A stretch of DNA of 64,000 nt from Amoebophrya sp. A120 (Eukaryota > Protista > Dinoflagellata), in the NCBI GenBank assembly GCA_905178155.1, contig CAJINV010000002.1, positions 1-64,000 of the forward strand. The letters run 5' to 3'. The notes under the pieces are model-generated. The model made no database searches and was not told the origin of the DNA. It was given only the letters and a program-made list of their open reading frames with translations. Every line of letters starts with the position of its first letter. The stretch's first letter is position 1. Made by a program: the position numbers and the translations under genes. Below are positions 4,460 through 63,700 of the stretch, one piece after another.

Positions 4460-7400
4460 CGTGATAAGTGGTGAATAGGTGAACGTCGGAAAATCTTATC
4501 GTGTATGCAAAAATGCCATGACAAAGTAAGTGCTTCTGCGCAGCGGTTTTCCAATTGATACTCCCGCCTCGGCACGACTCAGCTTCCTCTTGTATGCATT
4601 GCAAATATGTCTGGATCTGGAAGAGTCCAAGTTGCTCATGCTAGTTCTCATCATCGGCACAAAAATCTGTATTGCATGACCAGCGAATAAAGCTCGCACT
4701 CTTGGTCCTCACTTCTCATGCGATGTAAGAATTATTGAGGAGCCTTATGCTTATCCAAACTTAAACTTGTGATGCTAGAGCCCGCATTTCAAATCTTCTG
4801 GGTCATGCGAAAGCTGCATGACAACGTACAACAATCTTCCAGACCATGACATATTTGCATTTGATAACTTCGCCCTCGGAGCAACTGGAAGAGGTTGTTG
4901 TAGTATTTGCAAAACTTGTTCTCGTATCCACCGCAAATATATTTTCTGGGTCTGGAAGAGTAGCGGATTTGTCATGCATAGTTGTCACGAGCCAGGAGGT
5001 TTGAACTTTGAGATCCCCCATACCAACCTTTTTTGCATGACAAAGGCCAAAAAAGTTCTTTGTCCTCGTCCTGCTCGCAGAAGTACATATTTTTGCGTCT
5101 ACGAGATTGAGCATCACAAACACGGTTTCTTCCAGATCCAGACTACATATTTGCAATGCATAGTTTAAAGCTGTATCCCGATGAAAAACATCCCCACCGC
5201 AGAGACAAGATTGGCACTCGTCTGCAATCCAAATCGAAGGTTTTCGGGAGTCACGCATGACAAGCTTGCATCTGTATTGTAGTGCAGGCTAGCAAGGACA
5301 GCCGCATCACGGAGCCATCTTGTTATGCTGTTTACAGCATCCCGAACTCCCACTTACAACGAAAAATTCCTCATGGTCATGGCGATGCGCATTACAAATC
5401 TTCTTGCAAGTGCATATCGTGACAACTCTGGGGTGGAGACGTTTTTCCTCAAGATAAGCTGTTGCTCAGGAAGCTTGGTAAGTGAAAAGGAACTACAACT
5501 ACTACCACGGGAGGCGAAGGAATCTTTGCTACTATCGGACAGCCAAGTGGTATTGGAAAATAACAAACAAGTGGTGAGTACTGATGTTATATGGCACGGA
5601 AAAAAGCTAGCCCATCACAATTGTAACGCGAAAGTACTAGATACGCAGAAACATTATAGATCTTGACTGCTTCAGCATCAACCTGCGTGAACGTGCTACG
5701 GGGTTCCCTAACAGATTTTTCTGCGGTCTACATTTGCATTACAAGGGTGGCACACTACAAGATTCTTTCTGTGGGATATACCATTGCTCACGCCCATGTT
5801 GTTGCTGTCGTCGCTGTCGTCATCGACATCGTCATCATCGTCGTCGCCTGTTCCTCCGTTGTATGCACTTCAAAAATATCGGGCCGGGCGGTAGGATTTG
5901 GTTTTGCATCACAAAGTCCGAACACATGAAAAAGGACGGCCGGTGGTTGTGGTCCGTCAGGCTGGGCCATGACAAAAGATCTTTGATGACAAACTGCTGC
6001 GACTCGTGGTAGCAAGTCGATAAATTTGCATGGGATATTCCGCTTTCCTCGGTCGGCGTCGGGTCATCCTGTCGGAAAATGTTGTAGCCACCCCATAGTA
6101 CGCAAGCTGGGACTTCTGCCATGCAAAGAGTTAAAGTCCTTTCCTTTGGCCGTTTTGCATGACAGGCTGGCATCGACGTCCACCGGAGTGTGGGGCCGAA
6201 TAGCTAGTGGAGTTGCAACACAAGACGTAGTATCAAGTGTAAAAATGTCTGGGTCTGGAAGGTTGGAACTTGTAACGCTGTCTCTGGATTCCAAAACTAT
6301 CTGTATTGCATGACCAGCAAGAGGAGCGCAGTTTGTACTACGCGCAGAGGGCATTTCTCATGCGGAATAGGCAACAGGAAACGCTCTAAAAATATGTCAT
6401 GCTAGACCATGCATCACAGACATCACGGCGCATGCATAGCGTGCATGACAAGTCTCAGAACCTTCCAGACCCAGACATTTTTGCATCTGATAAGTAGCTA
6501 TCCAATTTCTCCATTGAGCATCACAAGCTCCTAACCGTGCAAATGCCTGATCTGCACGATAGCACTGGGGTGGGTACTTAGTTACGTTTCTGCGCCGGAT
6601 ACTCGTTCGTGTGGTCGTCGGCTTCTGTTTATATGTGAAGAAACGCGATGGGATGCAACATCGCAAAAGTATCGCGTCAATTGTTCTAAGTACGTATAAA
6701 TTGCATGACAAATAAACTGGTCTCTAAAACCAGGAATGTTGTGAAGCATTGCAACCAAGACTAGGCGCGGAGCTCCTCTTAATAATTGTAAGCAAAACCC
6801 TAAACCTGCGTAGCTACTCAAACAAATATAGCAAAAAAGTGCACCATAGTTCCGGAGGAGGGCCTTTAGTTTATCCTGAGTAAAAACGTCCCTACACCAG
6901 AGTTAGGATGGGGATTTTGCAACACACGCCTAGGAGTTTTGTGCGTCACGCATGACAAGTTGCACTCCGCAGTGTAGTGCAGTTTAGCAAGTGTAGCTGC
7001 GTCACAGATTCATCTGCTCATCCTGTTCACAGAGTCACAAATTCCAAAACACGAGTGAAAATGGCTCTCATGGAGATGCGCACTACGCGTCTTCCTGTCT
7101 TTGCAAATCTGCATCACAACTCTGGCGTGGGGACGTTTTTACTCAGGATATAGCTCGCGATTCTCTTCCGAAAGACGCCGGGCCTTTTCTTCGGCCGCGA
7201 TTCGCTTGGTCTTTTCCTGCTCGTATGCCTTCACAGCGATTCTGTGCTCGTTCCCCCACCAGCGTGCTTCCGCCACATATAGGGGCGTCAAGATCGAAGT
7301 CAACAGATTTGAAATAAAGTGTAATGCGAAAAATCGCTACCAGTTTGTTGGAGAACGAATTTCCAAACGTTGCATGACAAATTTTGAAGGCACCTACATC

Positions 7401-10400
7401 CAGTCTGTCATGCTGTTTGGGCAAAGACGACACCTCTTGTCGTGCTATTTTAGCAGTTTCGCCGCCTCTAAGCCCAAGCAGGCTTCTAATTATCGCCCTC
7501 TTTTGCCTGCTCTGCAAGACAGCGCGTTACTTATGTTGCATGACAAGCTATGACAATATCGCCACTGTGTTGACTTCGATCCTGCGGGTTCCATAAAACG
7601 AGCGCCTCGTGCACGGCATGAGGCATGTGTTCTTCGGCCATGACGTGAGAAGAGTTCTTGGTGGTGAAAAAAGAAAGTTGTAGGTGGAACAAGAAAGTTG
7701 CTGAAAAAAGAAAGTTGTAGGTTCTGCTGAACTCGTTTCCAAAAACTTACGTAACAATACTAATACTTGATTTGTGAACTGACTAAGACATCTGACCCGA
7801 CCCATTCGTTTCCAAATACATAAAAGTAAAAAGTAACGGTCAACCAACGCAATACACCAGTATGTTCATGTTGCTCATGCTCACGAAGACAGGCTTCACG
7901 AAGAAGCAACCAGAGCAAGTTGCGACTCGGATCTTTGGGAATACATGGAAGGACACGTCCCTGAAAAACAGAGACATTACCAAGATCGCTTCCTTAGACG
8001 CTCTACTTCTGAGATCGTTGTGCGGACCTGCTGGTGGAAACTGAGACGTTCCTGAGAAGTGCCTTCACTTTTGTGTCAAGAGCGCGCGCTGGAAAAAAAA
8101 AAACGACGAACAACTTTACACGGTTCTACCATATGCTCTGCTGTGACAGTCGCCGACCAGCTTTGGTCACGTGCGTTCTACTTGTTCCGTCGCCAAACAA
8201 TACAGTAGCTCATTTTCTCTCGTGTTGTTCATGCTTTTGCCTGCAGCTCTCAGGCTTTGCAAGTAGCATCTGTGCATCTAATGGATCCTTCAATCAGCCT
8301 TCTGTTAACTTAGCCATGTAGTAGAATTTCTGCGAGTTTTGTTGTGCATTCAATCGTCATATTTTTTGCTTGTGCTGCTCAAAACGAAAACATCACATGT
8401 CTTACTTAATACTAGCATAATTCTCATCTTCTGTATTCTCGTGGCGTGGATGTTTTGATTTTCATCGCCTCCCTAGTTCTTCTTCTGTCGAAAAGCGCAC
8501 ATTGACTTTCCATGGTGGACCTCCTGCTTGTCACGATTTCACCATACTGCGGCTCCTTTCTGCCGGACCGAACTTGCGACGGCGCTGCCACTGTCAAATA
8601 CAAAAATGTCCGGGTCTAGGACGGGAATGCAACTCCGTGATGGGGAGTTGTGAAGCACTACGGGATCACACTAAAGCTGTTATGAGTGAAACGCAGAAGT
8701 TTTCATTCCTTTTTTTGCGGGATTTGTCATCCGGATTAGGCATGCAGAAGCCTACTTCTGAAAACCTGTGATGCTAAACCCTGCATTTTTCGTCCAGATC
8801 TATATTTATAATGGGACACGCAAAACAAGCTGCATGAGTACATGATCATGCATCTGCAAGGCAATTCTTGTTTCAGACCCAGACACATTTGTATTTCATA
8901 TCCACCCGAGCCCGAGCCTGCATATCCGCACCTGCTGGTCGTTCTACAACTGCCGGCAAGGACGGTGGTGCATTCGATTCTGGGCAGCTATCCACGAACA
9001 AAACTGTCTATTGGGTCACACTGCAGCCCTAAGTACCTTCGTTTTTTTCATGTTTGGAAATGACCGGTCCTTCACGTAATTGCTGTAGTGGGGACCAAGA
9101 TTTTCTCAAGAAAGCGTCACGCTGGAACAAACTCATTTGCATGACATCTTGCGTGAATGTTGTTGAGCACGCATTCTGGGCATGACAAAACACAAGAATC
9201 TAAAACAAACTCTACCTGGGTCAGCCCCCTCCGGTACTACCGGTTTCGTCTTTTCCGAAAAATAGCCCTGCACTTGTCCGGTTGTAGAATCGGCTTTGCT
9301 CGCAAAATGATGACCTCGCATTACTGGTTTAGTACTTGTCGATCTAACCCCATTACTCGTTTTGAAACTCAGGATTATCATTTATGGAAATCCACCTCTG
9401 AAGACCTTGACCACCACCACTTCCACTACTTTTCATGCGAATAAGGGAGAACTGCATGCCATTTGTTTCAAGTTTGACCTTGAGTGACGTTCATGATATC
9501 CAACATGTTGATAGAGAGTGGTCACGGAGGGGAGATGAATTTCACACAGGATATAATGAATTTCTACTGACTCTGTGAAGCATTTCGCAACCACTGCTGT
9601 TGTAGCCCAAACTGTTCGATGACGCTGTTCAAAAAAAAGTCGCGGAATTGATGTACCTGATGGTCGTGATTTACACAGAAGTTTCTCGACATCTAATTCG
9701 GAAAAAATTTGAAAACCGGTCGTGCAAGTAGAAGCATTTCCATTTGTAGTTTCATACCCCGAACTAAAAGAGCTAGAGAGATTTAGCATGCAGGAAAACT
9801 ACACATGACAAAGGTGGACATCGACAACTGTACTTACCCGCATTTTTGTTGGATAATAGCTCTCGATGTAAATCTCTGTTCATCCAGGATAGTTTCGGTG
9901 TAAAAATCGGAATCTTTGTGTTTCTGCACGTCGCCATGCACTGCTGAGCCGACGTGTCTGTGTTTTGTTTTCATTCGCAAGGCCCTGGTCTGATACGACG
10001 AGGGTCGTGCCACGAGGAAGACATTTACTTCTGCATGAAAATGATACTTTTATTTACATGACAGACCAAAAAAAGAATGTTCCCAGAATACCATTTTTTC
10101 TTCCGCTCTTCATCAACGGCTTCTTGTACATTGAAATCAAATGATCTTTGGAAACTGCTTGAATTCTCTGCAACTCTCGACGTCCTTGTAGTTCTGAAAG
10201 TTGTCCTTCCGAACTTGTAGTACTCCTAATAGTACATGAGCGCCGTCAACTCGTTTTGTATGGAGGTGAAAATCACCATCGCGATCAGTTTGTGATGCAC
10301 AGCAGGGAGCTGTTTTTCGAGTTGCTCCTCACATTTGAAAAAAAAAGAGAAAGACATGACTCGTCATGCCAAAACCGCATCACAACTCGTCGATCGCGAT

Positions 10401-11650
10401 GGCGATGGGCATCTTGCAAGGAGTAAAGATACACGATTCTTTAACTTCTAGTCAATTATCGATCCTCAGCTCCTGTGGTAAAAATGTGTTGGGGGTTTCG
10501 ATTGATGAGATTGGACCACCGTTTCTTCACATATGTCTTCTTTTCAGGGCCTACTATTAGCCTTCTCTTCACTTCCTGTAAATACGCATGAAGACATAGA
10601 CACAAAGCAAATCCAACGTAAGTACCTGCTCTAATTTTCCACCCCATCTCCAACACTTGCCTGTGTTGCTTATCGTCCCATTTCCTCCTCTTTTCCATGA
10701 AACTTTCATCGTCACTGTGGCTGTGCTCCACCGCGGTGTTGCCGCTTTGTCCCCACCATCGGGTTTATTTGTGCAGCTGCGGCATCGTCGTCGTCCATGG
10801 GACTGTTTGCTCCGGAGCTGGCGTCGCCTGGGCTCACCGCACTGAATCCCATAAGCGGGATAATCGGCTCTTGTTGGAGGGCATTTCCGGGTGCAGCAGG
10901 AGCCGCTGGGGCCATATCGACATCGACATCCTCGTCGGGAGCAACTGCGGCAGCAGCAGCAGCAGCATCATCTTCCTTTTTTCCGACCTTCTTCTTATCC
11001 TACAGAAAAGTACATACTTCCATACCAGAAAAAAACCATTGTGTTGCTAAAGCCGAATTGCCCTCAGGGGAGGCAATTTCCTGTTTTGCAGACCGCAGCC
11101 TGTAATGCATCACAGAACAAGGTTTGTCATGCTCAACAGGGTTTTAGAAGTGACAGCACGAAATACCGCACCACAAGTTCTTTTTTCTCTGATGTATGTG
11201 TACAACTTTTCTGTAGGGTACGCTGGCTCTTCGTAGTACCAGCACAGCTGCAGATCCGCGCCAGGCGGAGGTTTCATGTAGAGGTGGCCTTCCGGGGATG
11301 CGCCTGAATAGTTACGTTGAAAATTCCGAAATCATGTAGCGTTAATGGTGCATGCAGTGCGATGAATTCAAAGTGTAGCAGCTGTAGGCTGCCAACTTCG
11401 CATGACAGTTCGTAGTTAATAGGTTACCGCGGAGTAGTTGTAGCAAATCCAAATAGAAGATTCACCCACAAAACTGCAGTAAAAAAGTGCCACGCACAGA
11501 AGTAATACTCGCTGCTGGCGTCAGCTTGTAGAACTGCACACCTCCGTGGTCCCCCGTTTCTGTGGTGGTTCCCGTTTCACCCGTTCCCTTAGGATGCGCG
11601 GGAGGCGCCTGGACAGCACCTCCTGCGGGATTTGCCTGGACGAACTGCTG
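4460..11650 (-). CDS. Multi-exon hypothetical protein(s), boundaries unresolved; includes a coiled-coil-like segment
   Basis: Exons ~7859-8089, 7596-7700, 7151-7277 and 6845-6871 join as ...LLWLLLREACLREHEQHEHTATFLFHLQL...MAEEHMPHAVHEALV.AEARWWGNEHRIAVKAYEQEKTKRIAAEEKARRLSEENRELKALLRNY via GT-AG introns and introners. In-frame TAG (8003-8005) and TAA (7994-7996). Confidence 0.45.
4593..4866. mobile_element. Introner, family A (TIR TAT.A.TGCAAATATGTCTGGGTCTGGAAG)
   Basis: TIRs tatgcattgcaaatatgtctggatctggaag / cttccagaccatgacatatttgcatttgata. Confidence 0.8.
4925..5162. mobile_element. Introner, family A
   Basis: tatccaccgcaaatatattttctgggtctggaag ... cttccagatccagactacatatttgcaatgcata. Confidence 0.75.
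5174..5456. mobile_element. Introner, family B (TIR TATCCTGAG.AAAAACGTCCCCACCCC)
   Basis: TIRs present; perfect 5-bp TSD AGCTG. Only 11 nt from the preceding element. Confidence 0.85.
6231..6492. mobile_element. Introner, family A
   Basis: ~30-bp TIRs; TSD CGTAG/AGTAG. Confidence 0.85.
6872..7150. mobile_element. Introner, family B
   Basis: tatcctgagtaaaaacgtccc ... gggacgtttttactcaggata; TSD 4/5. Removal gives ENRELKALLRNY. Confidence 0.9.
7278..7595. mobile_element. Introner, family C (TIR TATGGAAGCGCC...TCGACAAAG)
   Basis: Degenerate TIRs; interior homologous to 22210-22528 and ~34351-34650. Confidence 0.75.
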
Positions 11651-11889
11651 TCTGAGAGGTGCTATGCCCGGAAAGAATGTCGGTGTCAGTGAGTGCGACA
11701 CGCAGACGAGTAGACAGTTGCATACCGTCCTTGCTTCCACTTCCGTGAAACAAATACAAAATAACCATGGCATGCAGACGTCACATCAAAAAAAGCGTAG
11801 AGCGACCTCTGGTAAAGATACCTAAGGCTTGTGATCTTCACTGCAAGAAGGTCGTGAGAAGAGCGTTGTATGGTCATTTTCACAAAATA

Positions 11890-14799
11890 ACTACATCAGC
11901 TGCATCTCGTTGACACCAACCTTCTCGACGTCCATATGCTGCTCCTGTTGTTGTTCCCGAGATGAAGAACTAGAACCCGCGGCATTTATGGCGTTCTCAA
12001 GTGTTACACGCTCAACTGTTGCACAGATTTGTGATGCGAGAACAACAAAAATGAAAGCGGGAAAATTCCGCGTCTTGCATATACAAATTTGGAAGAAATT
12101 GCCATGCTATTTACCCATTCCAGAGTTTGTCATGCTAAACGGGTTGATTGCGTATATGCTGATGACAATTTTGCATGACAGATCATGCAACAGCTGAGCA
12201 TGTAACGTTTGTTGAGAACGCCATATTATTCAAGTTGCTGGTCTGCGTCGTATTAGAAGTAGGCAGTATCCGGACTTCGGACCTCCCGTCACAGTATCGC
12301 AAGAAAAAACTGTTTCTCTGTCTGTGAAATTGTGATGCATACTAGAAGGGAACATAGACCTACTTCGCTTACTCTACTCTTGCAAGACAACGGGTTACTT
12401 TCAAGCAGGGTCATTTTTCTTGGGAGGAGCGCACGGCGAAGAAAAAGAAATCTATTTCCTGTGTCATGCAGACCTGGCAAAGCCATCAGTCGTGAAGCAG
12501 TTTTTTCCTGCGATAAGCAGAACTGCGTTTGCAATGGACTCGCGGCAGGAAATAGCTGCTCCAGATCTGTCGGCGGGGCGAGTTTGATCGCGGGAAAACT
12601 GCTGACGCCACTGGACGAGGTGGACAGGACCCGCGGCTCGTTGACCGAGGCGGACTGCTCGCCCCGGATGATCTCGACGGTGGTCACATCGCGAGAGGAA
12701 GTGTTTTGGTTCGAAGTTGAAAGAAGGTCGGCGTTATTTGTGTGGTCTTGGTGCGGCCTGCTCGGAGCAGATGCAGATGGTTGGTCGTGGTCTACTTGTC
12801 CGATTTCTTTATCGAATGCAAAAACTATGTTTGGGTCTGGAAGGAGCTTGTTTTGCCCGATGAGGACAATTCAATTCTTGACGGCCAGGCATGATAGGAT
12901 TCTGAGTTGCTGGGGTAAAGTCTGTTCCTCATGATGTCAGGGCAACCTGCGTTTTTGAATGACAGAAAAGAAAAGTCAGCACGTTTGGCGTTAACGCGCA
13001 TGACAGAGTTGAAAACTAAGGTTGCCGAGCATGATGAGACCCCTTGCTCTCTTCCTGACCCAAACTACATGCTCGCAATACATAGTCTTGCAAGTCGAAC
13101 ATTTTATATTTTGGCAATTTTATGGCCAGCTCAAGGATGCTGTCGCCAGTCTTCCGCGTGATGGTCTGCAGCGGTGGTGCGTCCGGATTGTGTGGCATCG
13201 TATAGAAAAAATCCCTTCTCCCCATATTCCAAAGAAAATTTCTGATCATGCGCGATTTGTGTACACAAATTTTCGTGCACAAATCAAGTTAGTATTTTGC
13301 TAGGAGCAGCCGAAGACACGCAAATCTTGACTGTCTGCAGGTAGTTTATCATGCTATTCCTGTTCCTGACAGTGTGGTTGCTTCCCCTGGTCATACTGAA
13401 GCCGCACGGCCTTCCCAGCATCACGCCAGCGACCACTAGAGTCCGCATCTCTGCTTCCCGACTTCTAGCATGACAAAACTTGACTTTTCTTGCACACAAG
13501 CCATGCTAGACAGATCTGCGTTCGAATGTGGGGAGGAGGGGAGTTGTCATCTAGTTGTCATCTTGATAGGCTCGTTTATGTATTCGATCACGAACTTCCT
13601 CTCATGGGCTTTTTCGATGTCGCGCAGCTGCTGCGGTGTGTATTCCTCGTGTGCTATGGCGTTCTCCAACGTTACACTCTCAACTGTTGCATGAATTTGC
13701 AATGCAGGAACATAAAAAGTGAAAGGGGAACGGTTCTTGCGCCTTTTGCATTACAGGTTTGGAGCAGATTAGAATCTATCTAGCAAGGCGGGAACTTGAA
13801 CTTCTCGTGCGACGCAGCTTGATCATGTAGATGTTGGTGCCAATTTTATTGCATGACAGATTCATGTATACAGCTGAGAATGTAACGTTTGAGAACTTCA
13901 TATGAACAAGCCTGAAGTTTGTCCGCTCGTTCATCCTGAGGAAAAACGTCACCAGCTCAAAGCCAAGAAGGTATGCATTTTATTGCTACCAGAACCAACG
14001 ACCTTTCTTGCGCGTGGTGCATGACAAGTTTGGGTCTCTAGCGTAATCGTGCTCAGCTATTGAAGTCACACCAAAAACGTCGCTTCTGCTCATGACAATG
14101 CTCCAGACAGCATTGACGAGACGCTTCTCATGGTTTTGCACATGAAACACAGTCTGGGAAGGTCGAGGTGCATGTGAATTTGCATGACAACCTTGGGGTG
14201 GAGACGGTGACGTTTTTACTCAGAATACCACTGTAGCTATCGTTGGGATCCGTCATGGTGTAGGATCGGACCAGTATCACACCGAAAAAAGTTAGAAGGT
14301 GTACTATCGTGTCGTGCAATGCAAAAGTAACCGCCGGCAAGAAAAGTCTATTTGCGTACGGTGCCACAGCTACGTGTACGTGTTGTTTCAAAAGCCATAC
14401 CTTTGTGTTGCGAGCCAAGTCTGTTTTTGCATTTGCAAGTTGAGCATCTTGTACCACCACACTAGCTCTTTCGGTTTGGATACTTCCCTGCACCTTGGTT
14501 GTCGAGCCCGCCACTGTATCGTACATCATGCGGATCTCCGAGCCGGGCGGAAGCTTGTGTTATGGCGCTGGGAAAAAAAAACCACCCCCGTACCCGTTAA
14601 CTACAGGCATTTTAATGCCTGACTTATTGTCACAAATCACCACCGTGACTTCATGCATTGAGCGACTTCAGAGACTTACAAGCCGACGTCGAGAGAGAGG
14701 TACAACTGTAAGAGTCTATAACAAATTGTTCGCCACGACCGTAGTTGCGGCTGTAGGTTCAAACCAACTCCGCTCGTTCGGCTCTATATAGACTTGCAT
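11890..14799 (-). CDS. Multi-exon hypothetical protein (3' end uncertain)
   Basis: ATG at 14799: MQVYIEPNERSWFEPTAATTVVANNLL(TAG)TLTVVPLSRRRL followed by GTAAGT. Continues ...KLPPGSEIRMMYDTVAGSTTKVQGSRSYTMTDPNDSYSG across an introner. Large exon ~12555-12809. Confidence 0.5.
11987..12225. mobile_element. Introner, family E (TIR TATGGCGTTCTCAA.CGTTACA)
   Basis: TIRs present; homologous to 13655-13902, 16369-16584 and 36112-36361. Confidence 0.75.
13655..13902. mobile_element. Introner, family E
   Basis: tatggcgttctccaacgttacac ... tgtaacgtttgagaacttcata. Confidence 0.75.
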
Positions 14800-14876
14800 T
14801 TCGAAACTGCGGCGCAAAGAAGTCTTGTCATGGAAATAAATATCTATGGAAATAAAGGGAGCAGCTTTTCTTTTAT

Positions 14877-17800
14877 TCATTTTGATAGGTTAGGTTGCAA
14901 ATTCATGGCCTTGAGATAGTCGTCTTGCAGCCCTTCGTACGCGAGGTTCTGGATGTGCAGTTTGTGCTCTGCTTTTTTCTTTTCCTTTTCCGCTTCCTCC
15001 GCTCTGCCCCGTGCTTCCTTCGCTCGTGTAGCTTCCCCCTCCGCACGTTTGCGTTCCTGCTCCATTTTTGCCTGGGCGGCTCTTTTTTTCTCTGCTTCGT
15101 CCCTGGCTTGCTTCTCCTGCACCTTGTTCATTTTTGCCGGTTATCAAATGTAAAAATGTCTGGGTCTGGAAATTTCTGAGACTTGTCATGCGCGTTTTGC
15201 ATGGGCCATGGTGTCTGTGATGCATGCCCTAGCATCACAGACTTTTTGAGGGCTTCGCGATGCCTATTTATTCCGCATGACAAATGCCCTCTCCGCGTAG
15301 CCAAAATAATCGCATTCCCTTTTCTGCTTACGCAATACAGATTTTTTTGGAATCCAAATGCAGCATCACAAGTTTGCATTCTTCCAGACCCAGCCATATT
15401 TGCATTTGATACCAGTTCCTTCACCACACGTTCTGACCGTTTGTTAGTGCGCTCGAGCTTGACCTTTTCGACGTTTCGGAGGGCCTGTTCGGCCTCCCGG
15501 CGACGTTCCTCAGCGAGGCGATCCTGTTCCTGCTCTCGTGCTATCCGCAGTCGTTCCGCTCGAGGTCGTATGCATTGCAAACATGGCCGAAAGGACTGGG
15601 ACTCCATGGAAACTTGTCATGCAGAATCTGATGATTGAATCGTGCAAAACCAAAAGACTGTGTAGTTCGGTGGAGCAACAACTGTTGTTGCCCACTTCTT
15701 GCCACGCAAAGGGGGAATCTCTCATGCGAAATAGGAACTAAGAAGCTCTTCTTGCACAATCTATAGTAATGCCTCCGGGTGCAAGTACTTACCTTACCAT
15801 GCTAGACGATCATCTTTGAGCTCCACAAGGAGCTGCGTCATGACAAACCTTTCACATTCTTCCAGACTGAGACACATCATTTGCATTTGATAGCCCGTTA
15901 TGCAGTGCAAAAGTATCGCACTCGTATAAATGCATTACAAATTTCCGCAGCATGAGAAATAAAATTTGGATTTAGGTTCGGAAAAAAATTTGTAATGCAT
16001 GCTTGCAATACGAGTACGATACTTTTGCAAAGGATACCCGTTTTTCTGCCTCTTCACGACGCTCTTCTCGCACTCGTTCTTATCAAATGCAAATATGTGT
16101 GGGTCTGGAGGTTTGTCGTGCGTATTTTGCATGACCCATGATGCCTGTGATGCATGACCTAGCATTGCAGATTTTTATGGGCATGGGGCTTCCTCATTTA
16201 AAATCCGCATGAGAAATACCCTGTCCACCGTGTAGCAGAAACTCGGATCCTCTTGGTAGTGACGCAATACAGATTTTGGACAGCAGCACAAGTTTCAACC
16301 TTCCAGACTCAGATGACATATTTGCATTTGATAGTTCTTGTTCCCGATCAACATCGGCTAATGCTGGTTATGGCGCTCTCAAGCGTTGTTCTTCCATTGT
16401 TCGCTGTTGCAAGAATTTGTGATGCAAGTAGGCGAGCAAAGAACCTAAAAGCATTGCAGATTTTTGCTGCGCGGTGAACCTGTCATGCGAAGTAGCTACC
16501 CAGAGGGTGTTGATACTGATTCTGCATGAGAAATGATGTTAGTAACAGCGAGGATGAATGAACAAACGCGAAGTCACTTCCATACTTGTTGCCGTTTCTC
16601 TTCCTCGCCTCGAATCCGTTCTGATGCGAGCTCGCTGTCGCTGACAATAGTGTCTTTCGACGCAGGGGCAGAAGGGGCATTTTGAACGCGCAGGAGCGCC
16701 TCTGCTCGGACCGAGGCCCCGCTCCGCACGCCGAGGCGCAGCAGAGAATTGTTGGTATTAGACGACGCGCCACCGCCCGGGTTGCCGCTGCTTCCTACAC
16801 CTGATCGCGTTGATTCGGCGACGGGGTCTAAGAATGTGTTGCGGGATGAGGTCATTTTGGAGCTGTTGTTGCTTGTTTGTTGTGCGGTCTGTTCTGACGG
16901 AGACGAAGCGGAGTTACTTGCATTGTGGTTCTGCTCTTCTCGCGCCCGAACTTCTGGTAAAAGTCGGCTAGTACTACCCTTCGCGCGGCCTGATTCCGGT
17001 TCGGCAACCGGATTTTGGTTTTTACCACGTCGTGGTATCAGGCCGGACGGAACATGCTCTTGTTGCGCCGGAGGCTGCAATTTGTGCTGTTCTACCGGGA
17101 CGCCCCCGAGCGGCGGATTCTGCATGTGGGTACTAGCGTGGACCTGCAGTCTGCTCTGCTGTTGTCGCAGCTGCTGGTGCCCTTGTGGCCTGCGCAAAAG
17201 CTGCTGCTCTATGTCGTGTGAAGTCCGGATTTGCTGCTGCTGTTGTCCCAGGAGCTGCTGGTGTTCTAGCGGCCTTGGCAGCGGCTGCTGCTGCTGCTGC
17301 TGCTGCTGTATCCCTTGTGCAGTCCAGATTTGCTGCTGCTGTTGGAGGGGTTGTTGGTGACCGAGTAGCTGCTGTTGCGGTTGCAAGACCGCTCTACTCT
17401 GCTGCGGTGGCACCTGTATTCTGTGTTGCGGTTGCACTTCCACCTGCTGCATATGGTACTGCGGGTGCAGGTGATCATGCTGCTGCTGCTGTTGCCTTTG
17501 TTGCAGGAGCATGTGGTGCTGATTCGGCATCTGCTGCAGCTGTTCCTGGTTCTGTTGTTGCTGCTGCTGCTGCTGCTGTTGGGCATGTCCCTGCAACGAG
17601 GCCCGGTGCTTGAGGGACGGCATATCCGGGCCCCGGTTGTGGTCTCTCATGATGTGTGTCTCGTGCGGTAGTTTCACATGAGCATGAGAACAAATCTACA
17701 GTAGACCAGAACTCCACGAATTGGTTACGATGTGATGGGAAAAAAGCGTACAAGAGGACAAGGCACAGTTGCTCGAACCATGAGTACGTGTACATGGGGC

Positions 17801-20896: not shown

Positions 20897-23800
20897 TCAT
20901 GATGTTTGCTTTTTATCGCAATATATGAAAAAGCAAAGTCCTCTATTACTTGGCGGTCTACTTCTTTATGTAGAGAACTCCTCCGAGAACTCTTTCTTTA
21001 TCGGAGCTGCATGGAAAGGAGCCTCCACTTCGTCGTCCTGTTCCTCCTCGACTTCAGCTTCGTAACCGAGTTCCGCCTCCTCCTGCTCTATCCTCAGTAA
21101 AAACGTCCGCACCGAATTGTCAAGATGGTAACTACTTTTTCGTTGTTATTGTCATCAAGATGGTAAGTAACGTAGCTGCTACACAAATCAACAAGCTATG
21201 GCCGTTGCACAAGACAGACTTGGACTCTTCATAGTGTAATCCAAGAAAAGAATTCGTGAAGAAGCAAGATCTCATCCTGATGACAGCATGACAAATTCCG
21301 AAGGAACATCAGAAAATGCTCGCCATCATCGAGCTGCGCATGACAAACTTCCGAGGCTGCATGCAAACTTGCATGACAAATCTAGGGATCAGGACGGTTT
21401 TGCAATAGATACGCTCGTCTTCCTCGAGTTCAGCGCCGAACGCGTTTTCCTCTTCGTGGCCCTCCTCCACGTCGTCCAGGTCGTTTTCATCGCTGAGCAC
21501 GTTTTCCTCTTCGTAGTAGCCCTCCTCCACGTCGTCCAGGTTTCCCTCCACGTCCATCATGTCCCCGTCCTCCACGTCCCCTTCGTAGTAGCCCTCCTCC
21601 TGGCTGTCGGCGGCAACATCGTCTACTTCCGGTTATCAAGTGGCGAAAGACGTGACTTGGGTACTACCCAGTTTTGCAATAGGCACTTTTCACATTTTTC
21701 TTCTGGAAAGCGACATCAACACTTTTGCATTTGTGACAGTGCGTGAGGATCCGGAGGAGGCGGTGGAAACGCGACCGGAAAAATCCGGAGGGCAGCACAA
21801 CCGCGCGCACACATCATGTGTGCTTCCTAGAAAATATTTCGAAAAAGATTACTATCCTACTACCCTGGCAAGCATGACCAACACACACGCTGCGCCATGG
21901 TTTGCATGAGAGAAGTTTAGATACGGGAATACTGGTTTCTTTCTAGTGGTGCTCAAACTATTTGATCGAACGCTAGAAACGCGGCGCCGGGGCCTTGCTT
22001 CTGTAGTTCCCCAGCACGTTCGCACTTGATAGCTCTGCATCTACCGCTGCGCCCGCGAGCTCGACCCCCCTTGCGTTTGGCGCCGCCGCTTCCACCGACG
22101 GAGTAGCTGCGCGGGAGTCTTCGGACTCCTTCTCGGCGTCGTAGGCCTCCGCTGCCGGAGTGGTATCGCCCGCCGCCCGCGGGAACAACCGGTGGGTCTG
22201 CAACACCTTTATGGAAGCGCCAGGTTTGAAATCGACAAAGTTGAAACGATTTGTCATGCATAAAATGCAAGGCATGAAGTGCAAGTGCAGGTCTTGCCGG
22301 GATGGCAAGTAGGGCCGATCATTCTGAGCCTGTTTAGGGTTTGAAATAGAGCTGCTAATGTAGCATGACAAACGCAGTCTTCTGTGCCCAAACAGCATGA
22401 CAAATTGGATTCCGGCGCTCGGAAAATCTGTCATGCGCAGCTTGATAAGTTGGCTTCCGCCTGGCTCGTCCATTTTATGCACGGCAAATCACTTCAGCTT
22501 TGTCGATTTCAATCCTGGCATTCCCATAACCCTCCGCCTGAAGACGCAGTTGGCGTGCTCGATCTTGTTCTTGCTGTTTTTTCGCGGGGCCTGGTATGTC
22601 GCCGCCCGGTTCGATCGCAACTGCGCGAGGGATATGGATTTGTCGCCGCCCGACGCGAACAGCCGCTTTAATCGCAACAGGACCTCTCCACCCGCAACCC
22701 GCGCCTTGTCGACCAGTTCCCGCCAGGCCCTGCCGTTCCGCGCCGCGGCCTCCTCTTATCCAAAAGAGGAAGAAGTTGTGTTTTGGCATGCGCATGAGTA
22801 ATTTTCCCGGTTTACAAGTAGAACGCGAACGGCGAACAGCATTACAATACTTAGTTTATTTACAAGAGCCTATCTTCGGCTGTTCCTCGTCTTTCCATAT
22901 CTGATTTCGCGCACTAGGCTAGTGCGCGACATCGTATTTGGGAACGAAAGAGGCTGCTTCGATAGGTATAAGTACTTAAGCACGACAAACGTATCGTTCT
23001 CCGTCTCCTGTAGTTGTTGCGTGTTCTGCATTACAGATTCACACCGAGATGACACTTCTGTTTCTGTTGGATATCCGCTGTTTTTTCGTGGTTTTATCCT
23101 TGTGGTTGCCCTGCGGAAGCTGAGGTATCCTGTGGAAACAAGACGGCTCCACCCCATCTTGCAGGAGTCCAAAACCTCGAGTAGAGTGAGATTCTGCAAT
23201 ACAAATGAATGCAAATTTGCGGAATTGTGCATTACAAGTTTGGAAGCTCCACCAATCGGTTGCCAGGGCTATCTCACATATTGTATCTACAGTAAGCCAC
23301 CTTCACGTTGTTCGTCACATTCGATTATGAAGAACCCCGATTTTCATGTAAACCCTTTCAAAACTACACACTTCCGGTGGGGTTTGATGCAGATGGTAAC
23401 TTTACTTTTGCACATGCAGGTTTTCGTGACAAGATGGCGTGGGAAGTGCTTTATTCCACAGGATACTGAGGAGGATGATGTCCTTACTCTTGCGGTTGTC
23501 TTCCTTTCGGTTTCTATCCAGTAGCAACAGACGGCCGCAGCTGCGTATGCATTACAGAAGTACTATCGTACCAGTAGTAATTGCATGCACAAATAATTTA
23601 GCTTATCATGCCAGACCCAGAGGAAATTTGTGATGCTGTTGTAGCGCAGGACAGCGATTTGTCATGCATATCCGCAATCACTACGAATGCGAAACTTTTG
23701 CAATTGATACTGCGGACCTAATAAACCAAGAATACATGGATATTTTTGGATGTTGTGCAACAACCTGACCCCTTTCCGCCCGCGGAAAGGGGGGTAGACG

Positions 23801-43920: not shown

Positions 43921-43929
43921 GGTTGCTAG

Positions 43930-44191
43930 TATCAAATGCAAATGTGTCTGGGTCTGGAAGAGTGCCAGACTTGTCATGCAGGTTTTCCATGGCCCATGCG
44001 GTCTGGTATGTAGGACATAGCATGACAGATTCTGTGAGAGGTGTATCATGGCTATCCTGCATGAGAAACCGCCTCTCGATGAGGTCAAAAGTGGCCAGCT
44101 TTCGGTAATCATGCAACACAGATTTTTGCATGATTCAGATTTAGCATAACAAGTTACCTTCTTCCAGACCCAGACATTTTTGGATTTGATA
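43930..44191. mobile_element. Introner, family A (close paralogue of 63041-63307)
   Basis: TIRs; interior nearly collinear with 63041-63307. Confidence 0.9.
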
Positions 44192-47100: not shown

Positions 47101-50100
47101 AGCCCGCTCGCGTCGTTCATGACCGAGTTTGAAGAAAATTTTCTAGGTGACCGCGCCGGCCCGGGCGCGTGGGAGGGGGAAAACCCCCCGCCGGCCACGC
47201 CGGCAACGGGGAAGGTTTTGCTAGAGATGCAGCGGAAGTGGGAGGGCTTGCAGGCCTCGGCCACAGCCCACGCCATCGCCGCGGACGCGTCCTTTTCGGA
47301 TGCCGAGCGGTCCGCCTGGGCGCGGGTTGAGTTTGCCGGCCCCGGGGCGGCGGTTTCCGCTCGGCTGCAGGCTTTCGCAGCCCGCGTGCGGGAAAAGGCT
47401 GCTTGGGCAGTCACCGTAGACGGCCTCAGCGGGGCGGGCTACGCACGAGATTTTCTCGTGCGGGCCCCGTGGCTGCGCTCCTTGTCGGAGCGCCAGAGCA
47501 GCTGGTTAGAAAAACTGCGGGCGCAATTTAGCCTGCAGCTACCGGAGCCCACTCCTTTCCCGGACGAGGCGCCGGGAGGAGCGGTGGTTCCGGTTGGAGG
47601 TAGCAGCAGCGGCGACGCCGGGCCGCCCGGCGCCTCTTTGGCGTCTGCCGTTTCGGCTGCGCCGGCTCCGGCCCCGCCGGTTGCGCCACCAGTGCCCGCC
47701 CACGACGCCAGCAACTGGGACTGGGCGGAGATTTACAGATTGCGCGCTGGGGTTGCCGCCGGCCACCTACTCACGGCGTTTCCGGAGGCGACGAGCTTCG
47801 CCTTCACCGTCAAGGTGGCTGGCCGGCAGGGCTACCGCCGCGAGGTCCAGCGGGGGGACCTCGGCGCGGCCCTACCGCGTTTGGCTGTGGACGCGCAGCA
47901 GCAGGGCGCGCATCTGTTCTTCTTGCCATTAGCGGCAGCAAAAGCGTTTGTCATGATAGACATCGACCACGCCGGCGCGCCGGCTCCCCCGGGTTTTCCG
48001 GCCGGCGCCGGGGAGCCGCGGCTGGTCACCGAGACCAGCGCGCAAAGGTTTCAGTTTTGGTATGTGGTTGACGCGCCGCCAGGGGAAGCCGTCGAACAGG
48101 TTCGGCGGCAGGTGTATGCTGACACAGCTGGCGTGGACGCCTCCGCCTGCCAGCGGGGGCAGGCCGGTCGCGTCCCGCTGACCACAAACCCAAAGCCCGC
48201 GGCGGGCGGCTTTGTCTGCCGGGTGCGAGTGGCGCAGGGCGCGGGCGAGATCGAAGCAGCGGGCTACCTTCGTTCTCGCCGCGGGTTCACGCCCGGCCAA
48301 CTCGCCATCTACGCCGCCCTCGGACAGGTTCCGCCGGCAGTTCCTACGGAGGCGCCGCCGCACAGTGGGGCCGCGGCGGCGGGTGTTTTGGTGGCTTCCG
48401 TTTCGCCCCCCGTTGTGCCCGCGGTGGTTCCGGGTGCGGCCAGTAGCCAGTCTGTTTTGCCGGTGGGAGGCCAGGCCGGGCCTCCGCCGGGCAAGGAGCC
48501 TGCAACAGACGTTGCGGATCTGTTGAGCGACGACCAAGACCCCGTCGCGAATGGCGACAGCCTGTCCCCGTCCACCAAGCGTCGGCGGACGGAAGCTGGC
48601 CTCGTTGCTGCTGTCAACGCGGCAGCCGGGGCTGCGAATGTCGCGGGCGCCCCGGCCGCAACTTCTTCGTCCGCGGGCCCGGCTGCCGTAGCGGCGGCTG
48701 CGGTAGCAAGCGAGGACTCCGTCGCAACACCGCCCTCCGCGCACGGGGGCGTGGGAGAGCAGTTGAGCGACGAGGGCGGGGAAGACGACAGTTGCAGTGT
48801 GGGACCAGATGAAGAGCTCGTTGCCGGCACCAAGCGTGCCCCCCGGGCTCTGAGCTGGCAGGAGATCGGGGACGCCCTCCGGGGAGAGCGCGCCGGGCAG
48901 CCATTGGTGCTGTCGCTCCGCACCAAAAAAAAGCGGTTTTGGTGGCGGAAGAACCGGCGCTGCTACCGCCTCAAGGTCGGGGCGTCCGCCGCGGACGCCG
49001 GCCAAGAGCGCGTGGAAATTCTCCGTGAGCCCACGGGCTGGCTCACCGTGCTGGAGAGCCCCGAGGAAGCGGCCGCCGCCGCAACAAAAATTCATGAAAT
49101 CGCGCACCGGGGGCGCGATGCCACGCATGCCGCCTTGCTGGAGGCTGGCTACTACGCGCCCAACGCCGCGCGGGTGTGCGGCGAGGTCGTCGCGCGTTGC
49201 CGCGTCTGTGCGGCGCGCGCGGTGGTCCCCGCCGCGCCGCCGCCGTACAGCGCTGCTGCACTTACGGCGGAGCACGGATCACTTTCCGATAAAGTTTATC
49301 GCAAGATCCACATAGATCGGAAAGTGATGCCCCGCTGCACGGTTTCCCCCACTGCCACAAACCCCACCCCCGGCCAGGCGGTTGCCATTTGTGGCGCCGT
49401 CTGTGCCGTCGGTGGGGAATTGTGGGCGGCCCCGGCAGCCAACAACTCCGCGGCTTGTACGCTTTTGGCGTACTCGCCGCTGGAGAGCAGCTGGGGGCTG
49501 CCGGAGCATGTGGTTTGCGACAACGGCACTGAGTGGGGTCTCCTCCTTTCGGAGTGGGGCTGCTCGGTGTCGTTTACGGAGCCGGGGCGGCCACAGGGCA
49601 ACGGGGCCATGGAGGTGGTTTGGGTCTCGTTGTCCAAAATCCTTTCGGCGTTGGCCCTGGAGTTTCCGGGGCAGTCGTGGGCTGACCTGCTTCCGCGGGC
49701 GGTGTTTCGGTATAATACCGCCCCAAAACCGTGGAAGCATGGTCAGTCCCCCTGGACATTCGTCCGGGGGTGTGCGCCGCACACACGACAGGCGCGGGCG
49801 GTGGCGGAGGCGCTCGCGCTTCCGCAGCCGCCGGCCTCGCCGGAGGCCCCGGCTGCCGCCGCAGCTGGGGAGGAGGTGCCGCCCGACGCGGGCGCGGCGC
49901 TCGCCGCTCGCCCGCCCGCAAGCAGCTCCCCGCCGGCAGCTGCCCCACTGCGGGCGCCTTCGCCTCCGGTGGTTGTCGCTCCCGCGGCGCCGCCAAGCCC
50001 GGTGCCGCAGGCGGTGCCGCCGCGGTCCGCGGCGTTGGCGGCGTTGCGGGACGTCGCCAACGAGCGGGCCATGGCTGAGGCGGAGAGGCGCGTGCGCAGG

Positions 50101-59490: not shown

Positions 59491-61899
59491 TTTAGAGATG
59501 AGTAGGGCCGGAAAATAAAACTCTAGAATTACAGTTGTCGCTGAAGAATAGTAATCTTTACGTGTCGCTAAAGAATCACAACCGTGCTGTCACATCCTGT
59601 GCAAAAACGTTTCATCCGCCCTAGATTTGTCATGCAAATTTGCATGCTGAGGATGTAGTGTAGCATGACAGAAGCCATTTTCTCCTTCTGGTTGGATAAG
59701 AGGGCAGCGGATCTGTGGCGCATTAGCTAGGAACGTCTAGTACACTGCATACCCACCAAACTTGTCATGCGTCAGCTTCACTAGAACTTCATGACTGTGG
59801 GGTCGAAACGTTTTCACACAGGATATGTCGCTGTAGAAAAAAAATACCACTGTATCATGCAAAAAATTCTTACAATTCACCACTCGTCGCAGATTAACAA
59901 CCACTAGAACAAAATGGACAGTCGCAATATCATTTTTGTCATTTCTTACGTACTAACACCTGGCTTAAGAGGACTGATGTGGAAAAAAAGAAGCAACTTG
60001 AGGATTCACAAAACCCGGGTCGCGTTCTTGGGCTCTTTTAATATCGAGATGTCTTTACTCGATTCGCGTTCTTGCTTGCTGAGTTAATACAGAGACCACC
60101 CTCAGAAGAAAAAGGCTGATATGCTCGCTGGACGACTTCTTGCTCTTTCAGGCTAGAAATACTAGGACCCGCAAGTAGAGCGGCGTGCTGAAGTTTGGAT
60201 CTTGCCTTGTGCTGCAACAGAAGATCGACCTATCGGGATGAAAGTGTAGAAGTTACTCTTTCGCGTTTAGGACAAAATACTGTCTGTGTGCCTTTGCTCG
60301 CTTTGAGCCAAAGGTTTTGCACAATTAGTTTGGATCTTCATCTTCTTCAAATAAATCAGCTTGATATTCGTGATTCCGGGCTCAAGAATCCGAGTGCTCT
60401 AGAAGATGCTAATCTTCCCTCCACCTTGACCTGTGAACCAAAACTGGCTCGATTGAAACGTGTCTACACCTCTGCATTTGTCATGCGCTCCTTCGAGGAT
60501 TCATCTATATATGGGTTTTGGTGACACTACCCTTACTCGCAAGGTATGAAAAAAAAACAAGCTCTTGATGCGTGTGAAAAAACATGCTCTTCTGAAGAAA
60601 CAAGATCTTGACCGATGATCCAGTGGTGCGAAGACGACCACACTGTGACGAAGAACAAGCGTCGTGTAGTCAGACTGCTCTCTCTCTCTCTCTCTCACTC
60701 GGCCCTTAGAGGCAAAAAAAGACAGGTATGTACAAAAACCTGAGTTGACAACAAAAACTGCTTTTCCTCCCCGCCGGAGGTGATACCGATCGTGTATTCG
60801 ATACGACGAGTAACCGACCGCCCACAACTAAAAGTTGTAGATCCTGGATGCAACACGGATAGAACAGAAGATCCCAATATAGTGGCTGAGAATTACATTG
60901 AGATGGTACAACTAGAACGGTCCACAGCCCAATTGTTACACACCATGAGATGGAACGGTGCTTGAGATTTCGGTGCGATTCTAGTGGCAGAGAGCCTTCA
61001 CGATTCTAGTGGCAGGTCTTAACGGTGCTCGTACGCATGCAGTGCGTTATTTTCAGCGTTTTTCTCAACAGTGTTTTCAGTTTTTGTAGTTTTCTCGGTG
61101 TTCTTAGTATACAGTAAAACAATATTTGTATTTCTACGACCTTGAATACAGTCTCGTTTGTACAGTACTTGAATAAGTAAATATCTCTTGTTCATCTGTA
61201 GTCTCACATCGGACGGCACTAGCGCCCGAAACGCGGGGGCTGAAGTTGGTATCTGTCATCTGCTATACTGTTAGCGGTCTGGTTCTTTGCTAGATGCATT
61301 GCTGTGCTCGTTTACGCAAACGGAGGAGGACGAGGTAGGGGAAAATTATTGCTCGGGGTCACTTCTTATTTTTGTACATTAATGTTTAATTTTACAACAG
61401 CCTATAATAAATTGGATACGTCCTCTGCTCGAGAAGCGCAGCTTCTTTGGTGTATTAGTGTATTCAAGTTTAATTTGACAGCTGAGCTTGGTGCTTTGTA
61501 CGTTGAATTGTAATATTAAAGTCGTCGAAATCGAATACGAGTAAGTGCCAGGTCTGCATTGTAATGAGATGTTGTTCAACATGATTTGAAATAAACCGGA
61601 GTTTTACGTGCTGATGGAGTGTTGAGACTCCACTACTTTTTTCGATAAAAGTCTCTTTAGCTGTAAAACAGCGGCTATCGTGAGGAAAAATCCCCCCTCC
61701 CCATATTGACGCGGTAGGTTTTCGAAAATTTCTTGTGTTGCTGATTTGTGGCCACAAATCGCGTCTGTCTTGCAAGACGGCAACTCCACCGGCTCTGCCG
61801 CATTATGCAGGCGGTTTGTCATGCTGCTAGGCCTACAGTACGGACGTTTTCCATGCTAGGTGCCTGGGTTAAAGCTTCTCTGTCTCTACTCAGGTTGGA

Positions 61900-63700
61900 T
61901 ATGGGTCTGCAGTGGTCTCTAGCAAGACAAGTCTCTTTTGTGTACTCAAATCCAGCATCAGAAACTTCGTTTTGATATGGGGAGGGAGGATTTGTCCTTT
62001 TGATAGCGGCCTCCCCGCCTCGTCCGAGAGGTTCATCGTCGCCCCGCTGTCCAGAGTCATGCCGTTCCCCGCCGCCGGTTTACTGCCGAATAGCTGTACC
62101 AGGGAAAGACGTCACGCTAGTATGTCGCACAATTGTCAATTGCACTTCTGGCACCGAGGCGTACATGTCGTTCTGCATGACAAATTCCGTCGTCTTCGCA
62201 CGACAGCAGCAAAAGGAACATGATCACGTCAACTTTCGTCCTAGACGCGGGCACAGTTGCAATGCATATCTAAGACTTAGCCCAGTCAACGTGCAAATTG
62301 TATCAAACGGGAGAGCGCAGTTGTTGTACAAAAAGCATGACGGTTTTATTTTGGTTCCTTTCTCGTAAAATTCGTTTCTGGATTTTGGACAAAAAACCAG
62401 ATTTTTCCGCGATGGGTTCCTTCTTGGCCCCGATCAGCTGCTGTTGTGTTTTCGGAAAAGTACTCTTATGTTTCAGAATGAATCATACCACTTTTTGTTT
62501 CTCATGCATAACTAGTACTGACAAATAGGTCGGTGAAGAGATGAATCTAAGGGATTTACCTTCTGTGCGTTCAGGTTCATCTGCATCAGAAAGAATGGAA
62601 CATCACGAAGACGCTTTCTCATGATGAGAATGGAAATTTTCTTGGACACTAAGTAATTATACACACTGCACTTACCACCTGCGGATGCTGATGCTGCTTC
62701 ATGGTCCAGGCGTGGTATTCCGACTTTATCCACTGCAAGGAGGTCTGGGTGTGGGGGACTGCGGAACTGCATTGCACATTTGGAATGAAGCCAAAATGTG
62801 TGATGCACGAAGCAGAGGAGCGGCAGTTGTCTGTCATGCAAGAGCGCGATTTCCCATTTTCAAGCAAGCTGTCGAATCTTTTGTGCTATTCATCAAAAAA
62901 GTCCTCCTCTTTCGCTAGGTGCGAAAATTCGCATTTCGTGGAGCAATTCTTCACATATAAGTAAAACGCGCTTATCCCAAACCCAGGCGTATTTTCAGTC
63001 GATATAGATGCTGGAGAAGTTGTGGCCTTTCGGCGGGGAATATCAACTGCAAATATGTCTGGGCCTGGAAGAGTGCTAGACTTGTCATGCAGGTTTTTCA
63101 TGACCCATGAGGTCTGGTATGTAGGACATAGCATGACAGATTCTGTGATAGATCTATGATGCCTGTTCTGCATGAGAACAAACTGCGACGTCTCGCTTAG
63201 GTCACAAGTGCTTTTGGTAAATCAAGCAACACAGATTTTTACATGATTCAGATTTAGCATGACAAGTTCCAACCTTGTTCCAGACCCAGAGATATTTGCA
63301 ATGCATAGGGAACTCTGGATCCCGCCATACTTCTTGTTTCCGCCGAAGCCCGAAGCAGAAGAGGTACCTGTTTGAAGTCAAATTTGACTTTATTCATGAT
63401 GAGTTTGTCATGCAGGAATGCTGCTTTTTTGAATCCTACTCAGATGTCCGAAAATAAAACGATTCCGGCTACAACGGCCTCTAGCAGCTTAGTACCGGTG
63501 TGGTGCGCTCCGGCTTGCGCAAAATTCGACGAGTGGCCATTGTACGAGTGGGAGGAAAAAGTGGTCTTCCCGTGCGGCACCATCGTCGCTGAAGGAATAT
63601 CGTTGTTGCAGGTATACTTATACTTGACTGTATCCGATTCCAGTTGATCGACAAGTTCGCACTTGTTGGTACAATGGAGCGCCAACTTCTTTTCGCTATG
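61900..63700 (-). CDS. Multi-exon hypothetical protein fragment(s), unresolved
   Basis: Protein-like exon ~63445-63665 (ELVDQLESDTVKYKYTCNNDIPSATMVPHGK...) and short exons between introners. Confidence 0.3.
63041..63307. mobile_element. Introner, family A
   Basis: TIRs; perfect TSD GGGAA. Confidence 0.9.

Follow-up and report, generated by a model that had tools for sequence, protein, structure and literature searches.

How does a cell find the ends of introns that lack GT and AG at their borders? The question is raised by a 64,000-nucleotide (nt) stretch of contig CAJINV010000002.1 of Amoebophrya sp. A120 (the window), the genes of which are interrupted by short elements with terminal inverted repeats (TIRs) that begin with TAT and end with ATA. 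A first-pass annotation of the letters alone had counted more than 40 such elements in at least six TIR families. It proposed that each is removed together with one copy of a 5-bp target-site duplication (TSD), the cut sites being measured from the TIR stem and not read from sequence. We find that the elements are removed at the RNA level in a single register at nearly all junctions, without GT-AG borders and independently of element family, orientation, and TSD sequence. Besides the stem, the bases of the terminal triplets are likely read.

Elements, host genes, and cut register

A scan of the window for TIR pairs recovered 52 non-overlapping pairs with a score of at least 24, versus 0–2 in each of 10 composition-matched shuffles. 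By hand curation we delimited 79 TAT...ATA elements (4593–63307). Of these, 42 have the support of RNA contigs or of an annotated protein; the other 37 were recognized from their end motifs, many of them with an open frame across. The 77 short elements form six multi-copy clusters (17, 11, 4, 3, 3, and 2 members) and 37 singletons, in agreement with the earlier count of elements and families. The TIR consensus (TAT, seven variable nt, and AAA) is present as a relaxed motif at 37/42 donor ends and 34/42 acceptor ends. Perfect flanking repeats of 5 bp border 12 of the 79 elements (all ten in the first-pass annotation, plus two more), versus 1, 0, 1, and 0 elements at 3, 4, 6, and 7 bp, and mean flank identity is 0.56 at 5 bp versus 0.21–0.28 at other lengths. 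The 6-bp CTGAGG repeat reported earlier is also real and flanks the element at 23126–23465. We infer that the elements originated as non-autonomous TIR transposons with a 5-bp target duplication.

Exon queries for two window genes returned one protein each, both from Amoebophrya sp. A120 and 100% identical. Because these genes match A120 proteins, we identify the elements as the non-canonical A120 introner elements of Farhat et al. (2021; PMC7789003). As predicted, deletion of each element plus 5 nt rebuilds coherent proteins, with 870/871 and 571/571 residues identical to the annotated ones. Both genes checked can be translated with the standard genetic code, which rejects the alternative code claimed for them; as far as the published account describes it, that code belongs to another strain (PMC12005148). 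The host genes and their introns are given below (TAT-type introns by element start and end; in gene 1, the span removed with each TAT element runs from start-4 to end+1 in window coordinates).

41330..59830, minus strand: host gene 1, encoding an 871-amino-acid protein (P0084); RNA contigs and 870/871 identity
41441–41730, 41749–42016, 42198–42414, 42614–42860, 42969–43252, 43305–43543, 43600–43896, 43930–44191, 44250–44511, 44552–44811, 45236–45567, 45633–45904, 45942–54575, 54642–54904, 54984–55116, 55156–55527, 55619–55970, 56080–56433, 56767–57034, 57384–57651, 57668–57847, 57897–58169, 58186–58437, 58596–58895, 58997–59317, minus strand: TAT-type introns of gene 1
59593–59825, minus strand: TAT-type intron of gene 1 upstream of the open reading frame (ORF)
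44870–45111, minus strand: the single GT-AG intron of gene 1
20969..29647, minus strand: host gene 2, encoding a 571-amino-acid protein (P0085); 571/571 identity only at the 1+4 register defined below
21089–21411, 21634–22031, 22210–22528, 22757–23073, 23126–23465, 23515–27192, 27262–27631, 28145–28283, 28319–28587, 28604–28785, 28811–29052, 29131–29459, minus strand: the 12 TAT-type introns of gene 2
60976..63900, minus strand: host gene 3; all introns gone in one RNA contig (runs X3 and X8)
61676–62005, 62095–62367, 62727–63004, 63041–63307, minus strand: TAT-type introns of gene 3
62441–62675, 63368–63495, 63589–63882, minus strand: the three GT-AG introns of gene 3

In transcript sense, each intron comprises 1 nt, the TAT...ATA element, and 4 nt (the 1+4 register). 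This register fits 36 of the 37 junctions checked against the two annotated proteins and is compatible with 15 of 16 RNA-contig junctions, so the proposed constant spacing between the cuts and the TIR ends stands. Three RNA-contig junctions allow only 1+4: 57384 (from the letters between joints), 42614 (contig end at 42609), and 44552 (contig ends at 44547 and 44813). The proteins discriminate between registers as well. If k is the number of bases removed to the left of the element in window coordinates and 5-k the number removed to its right, then k=4 equals 1+4 on the minus strand. For gene 1 (25 elements), k=4 reproduces 870/871 residues of P0084, and k=3, 5, 2, 1, and 0 give 8, 8, 12, 14, and 19 mismatches, respectively. 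For gene 2 (12 elements), k=4 reproduces P0085 completely (571/571); 5, 7, and 7 residues are mismatched with k=3, 5, and 2, and a premature stop results from k=0 or 1. Furthermore, family members inserted in opposite orientations (43930 versus 45633 and 42614; 22210 versus 29131) exclude a flipped register.

The TSD has decayed to at most 2/5 matches in 19 of the 42 supported introns and the register held at 1+4; the element with the 6-bp repeat (23126–23465) loses only 5 nt. It is therefore the geometry, rather than the repeat, that determines the cut, and the description of the removed segment as the element plus one TSD does not hold as such.

Bases and stem at the intron ends

At the 1+4 register, 18 of the 79 introns start with GT, 8 end with AG, and none has both. 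Although the first-pass annotation saw no fixed dinucleotide, the sequences do contain a fixed signal, as intron position +2 is T, +3 is A, and -7 is A in 79/79. More informative are the 17 variant ends among the 79 elements: TIR positions 1–2 were changed 0 times at donors and 10 times at acceptors, and position 3 was changed 7 times at donors and 0 times at acceptors (Fisher p 5e-5; 0.003 for the 11 variant ends among the 42 supported elements). All 17 changes are uncompensated at the partner end and 12 are non-pairing. Strand bias does not appear to explain the asymmetry, because the same T-to-C and A-to-G changes are seen at the tolerated positions. Since the changes are strand-asymmetric, with U+2 and A+3 never varying at the donor and A-7 never varying at the acceptor, the terminal bases are likely read. 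The canonical GT-AG introns that we checked start with GTA in 4/4 cases.

Could structure alone set the cuts? An endonuclease and ligase, or another non-spliceosomal machine, might use the end of the RNA stem as the reference for both cuts irrespective of base identity, a mechanism that has been proposed for the nonconventional introns of euglenids. Such a machine would account for the fixed offsets relative to the TIR ends, the strong pairing of an intron's own ends in most cases, the end-to-end joining of long introns with nested elements, and the lack of G+1 and AG. It is also in line with the report that U1 small nuclear RNA was undetected in A120 (PMC7789003) and with the 3' spacer, which is likewise the longer one in the Euglena code as described (PMC12501133). 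However, the variant ends are strand-asymmetric, uncompensated, and mostly non-pairing; stem mismatches show no preference for G.U over A.C (104 versus 91, p 0.39); and the introns at 44552 and 62095 are cut precisely even though their ends pair at background level. We thus regard a pure structure ruler as unlikely. What survives of the first-pass claim is the fixed distance to the TIR ends; its second half, that sequence is not read, conflicts with the asymmetric, uncompensated, and base-specific ends.

The motif alone is insufficient as well, because donor-like decoys go unused (4 among 4,305 bases of exon and 40 among 9,975 bases of intron interior) and an intron's own 3' end out-pairs the next downstream 3' end in 38/39 cases. 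A family-A TIR within a coding exon of gene 1 (58500–58533, minus strand), which carries CAT instead of TAT in donor orientation, is exonic and kept in the annotated protein.

We propose that the terminal repeats pair both ends of the intron and that the stem would serve in partner choice. The splicing machine would then likely recognize two donor bases, U+2 and A+3, together with the A located seven bases from the acceptor, and make its cuts at fixed distances. Such a 1+4 = 5 geometry would act as a filter for elements with 5-bp TSDs, and elements with other TSD lengths would persist only when nested inside introns. Overall, A120 introners removed at 1+4 through pairing, base reading, and fixed distances are probably the best explanation of the data, and we hold it with reasonable confidence.

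Several observations weigh against this explanation. The invariance of TAT and ATA is partly built into the way in which the elements were found, so that the information lies only in how asymmetric the 11 (or 17) variant ends are; four degenerate acceptor ends were positioned with the register in mind (a downstream A run agrees with their placement). Only one of the four canonical introns has an A at -7. The balance of G.U and A.C mismatches does not point to selection on the stem at the RNA level; the two precisely cut introns with background-level end pairing count against the part assigned to the stem too. One element, 57897–58169, is off register: the removed length is still the element plus 5 nt, and P0084 and an RNA joint indicate k<=3. 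It adjoins an 11-nt micro-exon, and the deviation could either be real or stem from the aligner. Finally, the support comes from three genes, all on the minus strand of a single window, and the annotated proteins were built from transcript alignments and may share RNA with the runs, hence they are not independent.

The catalyst could well be a relaxed, U1-less spliceosome of the U2 type with A-7 as the candidate branch point, a reading that we place somewhat short of an even chance; a separate, Euglena-like machinery is possible, and we lean toward the spliceosome. The A at -7 and the pyrimidine that follows it resemble what we take to be a branch site. If so, the elements would exemplify, tentatively, a third nuclear splicing code, 5'-N|UA...A-Y-R-N4|, in which a U1-less spliceosome without G+1 and AG cuts six bases past the branch adenosine, inside a transposon end. 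A TAT transposon with a 5-bp TSD would thereby make a perfect intron whichever way it is inserted. It would also offer a safe harbor to larger elements, including a primase-integrase DNA transposon that has not been described before. An A-7 branch point would mean that a spliceosome can work without G+1, AG, and U1. In addition, the 1+4 = 5 geometry predicts which transposons the genome tolerates in exons.

Long introns, nested elements, and level of removal

Two of the supported introns are long, with other elements nested within them:

45938..54576, minus strand: 8,639-nt TAT-type intron of gene 1, a 233-nt host introner remnant with a nested 8.4-kb element
45987..54383, strand not assigned: nested DNA element with TG..CA ends, a 10-bp perfect TIR, a 4-bp TSD (TATG), and a subterminal repeated motif; boundaries inferred from one copy
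47038..51198, plus strand: intronless ORF of 1,386 amino acids (P0001) in the nested element, with a RepB-like primase and a Gypsy/retroviral-type integrase
23511..27193, minus strand: 3,683-nt TAT-type intron of gene 2, about 275 nt of host introner with nested elements; skipped in P0085
23546–23709: TAT element nested within the 3,683-nt intron, with the perfect TSD CTGCG
23749–26979: foreign 3.2-kb GC-rich TIR element within the 3,683-nt intron, with a 3-bp TSD (TTG), its own TIRs, and no long ORF

The 8,639-nt intron is bounded by an orphan left end (45942) and right end (54575). An RNA contig (run X4, record 18) bridges it, the intron model reproducing the indices of the record exactly, and P0084 allows registers k=4–5 only. 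RNA contigs give no cover over 46370–53706 at 98%, which is consistent with splicing but is no proof of a silent ORF. Run X3 RNA contains diverged relatives of the nested element (~93% at 46005–46344 and a match near 47053–47170), and run X5 has a contig that matches from 54326 and is foreign in its left part.

The RepB-like primase domain of P0001 lies at approximately amino acids 296–400 (atlas 0.96; Pfam E 7e-4, below the cut-off). An H2C2 plus DDE integrase follows at approximately amino acids 678–900, with D-30-E spacing assigned by eye, weak Pfam support below the cut-off, an atlas score of 0.95, and a match to PFV integrase (E 1.4e-4). The ten nearest proteins scanned, mostly Gypsy-type pols, all have retroelement-type integrase domains. 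Pfam detected no reverse transcriptase or RNase H in P0001, a word-index search found no homolog of the integrase region, and tblastn found no match to the primase region in phage records. Folding the primase region as a single sequence gave a poor model (pLDDT 53), which was not used.

Is this integrase the mobilizer that the first-pass annotation had placed outside the window? An integrase ORF is in fact present, nested in a TAT intron, though its element has other ends (TG..CA and a 4-bp TSD). The element could be the autonomous mobilizer of the TAT introners if its true extent were 45942–54575. The TAT ends on either side of it rank second among 42 in pairing, and retroviral-type integrases are reported to give TSDs of 3–6 bp (4–5 bp for Ginger2; PMC10045372). 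Moreover, the A120 survey covered only introns of 40–1000 bp and reported no transposase (PMC7789003). Yet the inner TG..CA boundary, with its 10-bp perfect TIR and 4-bp TSD, leaves a typical 233-nt introner, comparable nesting occurs at 23515–27192, and the outer 5-bp flanks match at 1/5 positions. We therefore rate the 8.6-kb unit low as a TAT transposon, and its role as mobilizer is doubtful; the primase-integrase element is likely a passenger. Regarding the mobilizers suggested earlier, the TA..TA termini fit an IS3EU-like element, but its usual 6-bp TSD does not (1 perfect 6-bp repeat versus 12 perfect 5-bp repeats among the 79 elements). The other suggestion, hAT5, combines a hAT transposase with a 5-bp TSD; no hAT-type match was found among the 13 ORFs scanned.

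The elements are removed at the RNA level. In the RNA runs X3 and X8, TAT elements and GT-AG introns are missing from one and the same contig record, and DNA contigs of run X1 pass through the elements ungapped at flank depth (e.g., 41307–43957), which bears out the proposed RNA-level removal of Amoebophrya-type introners. One RNA contig retains 41441–41730 while the neighboring 41749–42016 is already removed, and beside 42614 the depth is ~41 for spliced versus ~10 for retained RNA. Several gene 1 junctions were checked only by contig pieces and P0084, and a second alignment that included X1 listed 15 of 143 joints, many from other loci. Among raw RNA reads, 86 from run X9 and 3 from run X10 matched the locus in part; they are compatible with an origin in other copies and carry no junction information. 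Intron-retaining RNA contigs were seen at 41407–41747 and 42580–42891, shallower than the spliced contigs.

Programmed or somatic excision from DNA, with RNA copied from the excised template, would suit the transposon anatomy of the elements and, with 15 of 143 joints listed, may occur as a rare event; as the source of the junctions it is most improbable given the continuity of the X1 contigs, a register that follows transcript direction, the partly spliced RNA contigs, and the loss of GT-AG introns from the same contigs. Strong hairpins with short direct repeats are a classic setting for reverse-transcriptase template switching, and the 57897 junction may be an aligner slip, but we give equally little credence to the junctions being artefacts of either kind because the register is fixed even where repeats have decayed, long open frames appear only upon removal, and spliced contigs are deeper wherever both forms are seen.

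The remaining TAT-type elements, all on the minus strand, were curated from the sequence:

4593–4866, 4925–5162, 5174–5456, 5590–5778, 6231–6492, 6872–7150, 7278–7595, 8592–8900, 10996–11220, 11663–11936, 11987–12225, 12295–12515, 12810–13084, 13196–13568, 13655–13902, 13932–14227, 14275–14482, 15142–15411, 15569–15892, 15899–16036, 16081–16333: TAT-type elements of region 4593..16333, from end motifs and partly open frames
29957–30156, 30223–30544, 30626–30895, 31204–31347, 31691–31983, 32043–32291, 36112–36361, 36415–36637, 36695–37109, 37364–37683, 38177–38481, 38547–38695, 38742–39063, 39235–39561, 39598–39855: TAT-type elements of region 29957..39855, from end motifs; frames stay open across several +5 junctions

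Micro-exons of 11–13 nt with RNA or protein support separate adjacent introners at 41732–41744, 57653–57663, 58171–58181, and 28589–28599, and a 1-nt exon is predicted at 15894. In gene 1, a single 507-nt intron at 44603–45109 was considered and dropped for two introns; the contig ends are fixed at 44547 and 44813. A weak kinase-like stretch of the same gene (57038–57379, minus strand; Pfam AceK_kinase E 0.047, below the cut-off) matched only the A120 protein itself in an exon search. At 4560 lies a strong TAT-type end without a partner, and ahead of it are GC-rich DNA and a 312-bp tandem array (1–1240); this end may belong to another long nested intron with its other end beyond the window. 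Long GC-rich or repetitive inserts occupy 17620–20920 and 32662–34350, with orphan TAT ends near 20923 and 32662; they contain an approximately 90-bp tandem repeat (19850–20210), a palindromic array (33300–33700), and a 57-bp direct repeat (33063/33731). An Rfam search of the window gave no match.

Comparison with known systems

A120 is already known to carry this class of elements. Farhat et al. (2021) describe RNA-supported, MITE-like introners (miniature inverted-repeat transposable elements) of ~240 nt whose inverted repeats start with TAT, 7 nt, and AAA and whose borders carry direct repeats of 3–5 nt (5 bp in the legend of Fig. S19). They report more than 60% non-canonical introns, no detected U1, and no transposase (PMC7789003). 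The window elements share the strain, the ends, the border repeats, the division into families, and the non-GT-AG removal from RNA. They differ in a register fixed at 1+4, in asymmetrically constrained ends, and in members of 3.7 and 8.6 kb that arose by nesting. Among introns of 40–1000 bp, that study called the splice site variable or unknown relative to the hairpin, with the inverted repeat 1–5 nt from the site. It thus left A120 splicing open; a single register and three apparently required bases make the question directly testable. We found no statement of the fixed register in the literature searched, where figures of PMC7789003 may show part of it, nor of the asymmetric base constraint.

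The A120 families of Gozashti et al. (2025; PMC12130899) are similar in that many are TIR DNA families whose splice sites are often co-opted from the flank; one family has Gypsy/Copia homology between its TIRs. Unlike the window elements, the 23 of 58 A120 rows considered vary in their labels (co-opt both, co-opt/carry) and TSD calls (2–5) and follow no common rule.

The nested element resembles Ginger1 and Ginger2 in its H2C2 plus DDE Gypsy-like integrase without reverse transcriptase, its TG..CA ends, and its 4-bp TSD. As described, however, Ginger elements have TGTNR termini and TIRs of 40–270 bp, versus TGA and a 10-bp perfect TIR here, and a C-terminal OTU/Ulp1 domain, versus an N-terminal RepB-like primase domain (PMC2836005). 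The element is thus Ginger-like but outside Ginger by its termini, and a TIR element with primase plus integrase was not found in the literature searched. IS3EU/GingerRoot elements share TA..TA termini with the TAT elements, but their TSD is usually 6 bp and their transposase is a DDE enzyme without HHCC (PMC10045372); the only integrase in the window has HHCC.

With regard to splicing, the GT donor and AG acceptor of U2 spliceosomal introns occur together in 0/79 elements. The introns of the tunicate Fritillaria borealis, a precedent for a relaxed spliceosome, are also transposon-derived, with TIR and TSD, and use an altered U2 spliceosome; their preferred ends are AG-AC or AG-AT and U1 is retained, whereas the window elements have N-T...N-N ends and U1 was reported undetected (PMC13326754; PMC11282704). 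The nonconventional introns of Euglena (Nomura et al., 2025) lack GT-AG as well and have inverted ends, fixed spacers that are longer on the 3' side, and a likely MITE origin. Their code, N3CDG...CH'GN5-6 followed by a purine, differs from the N1-UA...A-Y-R-N4 of the window as far as it is described (PMC12501133), and exon position +1 follows no purine rule here (A 29, C 26, G 18, T 6; n=79). If the A120 introns nonetheless leave as full-length circles without a lariat, as Euglena-type introns do, they would represent a second independent origin of the euglenid solution.

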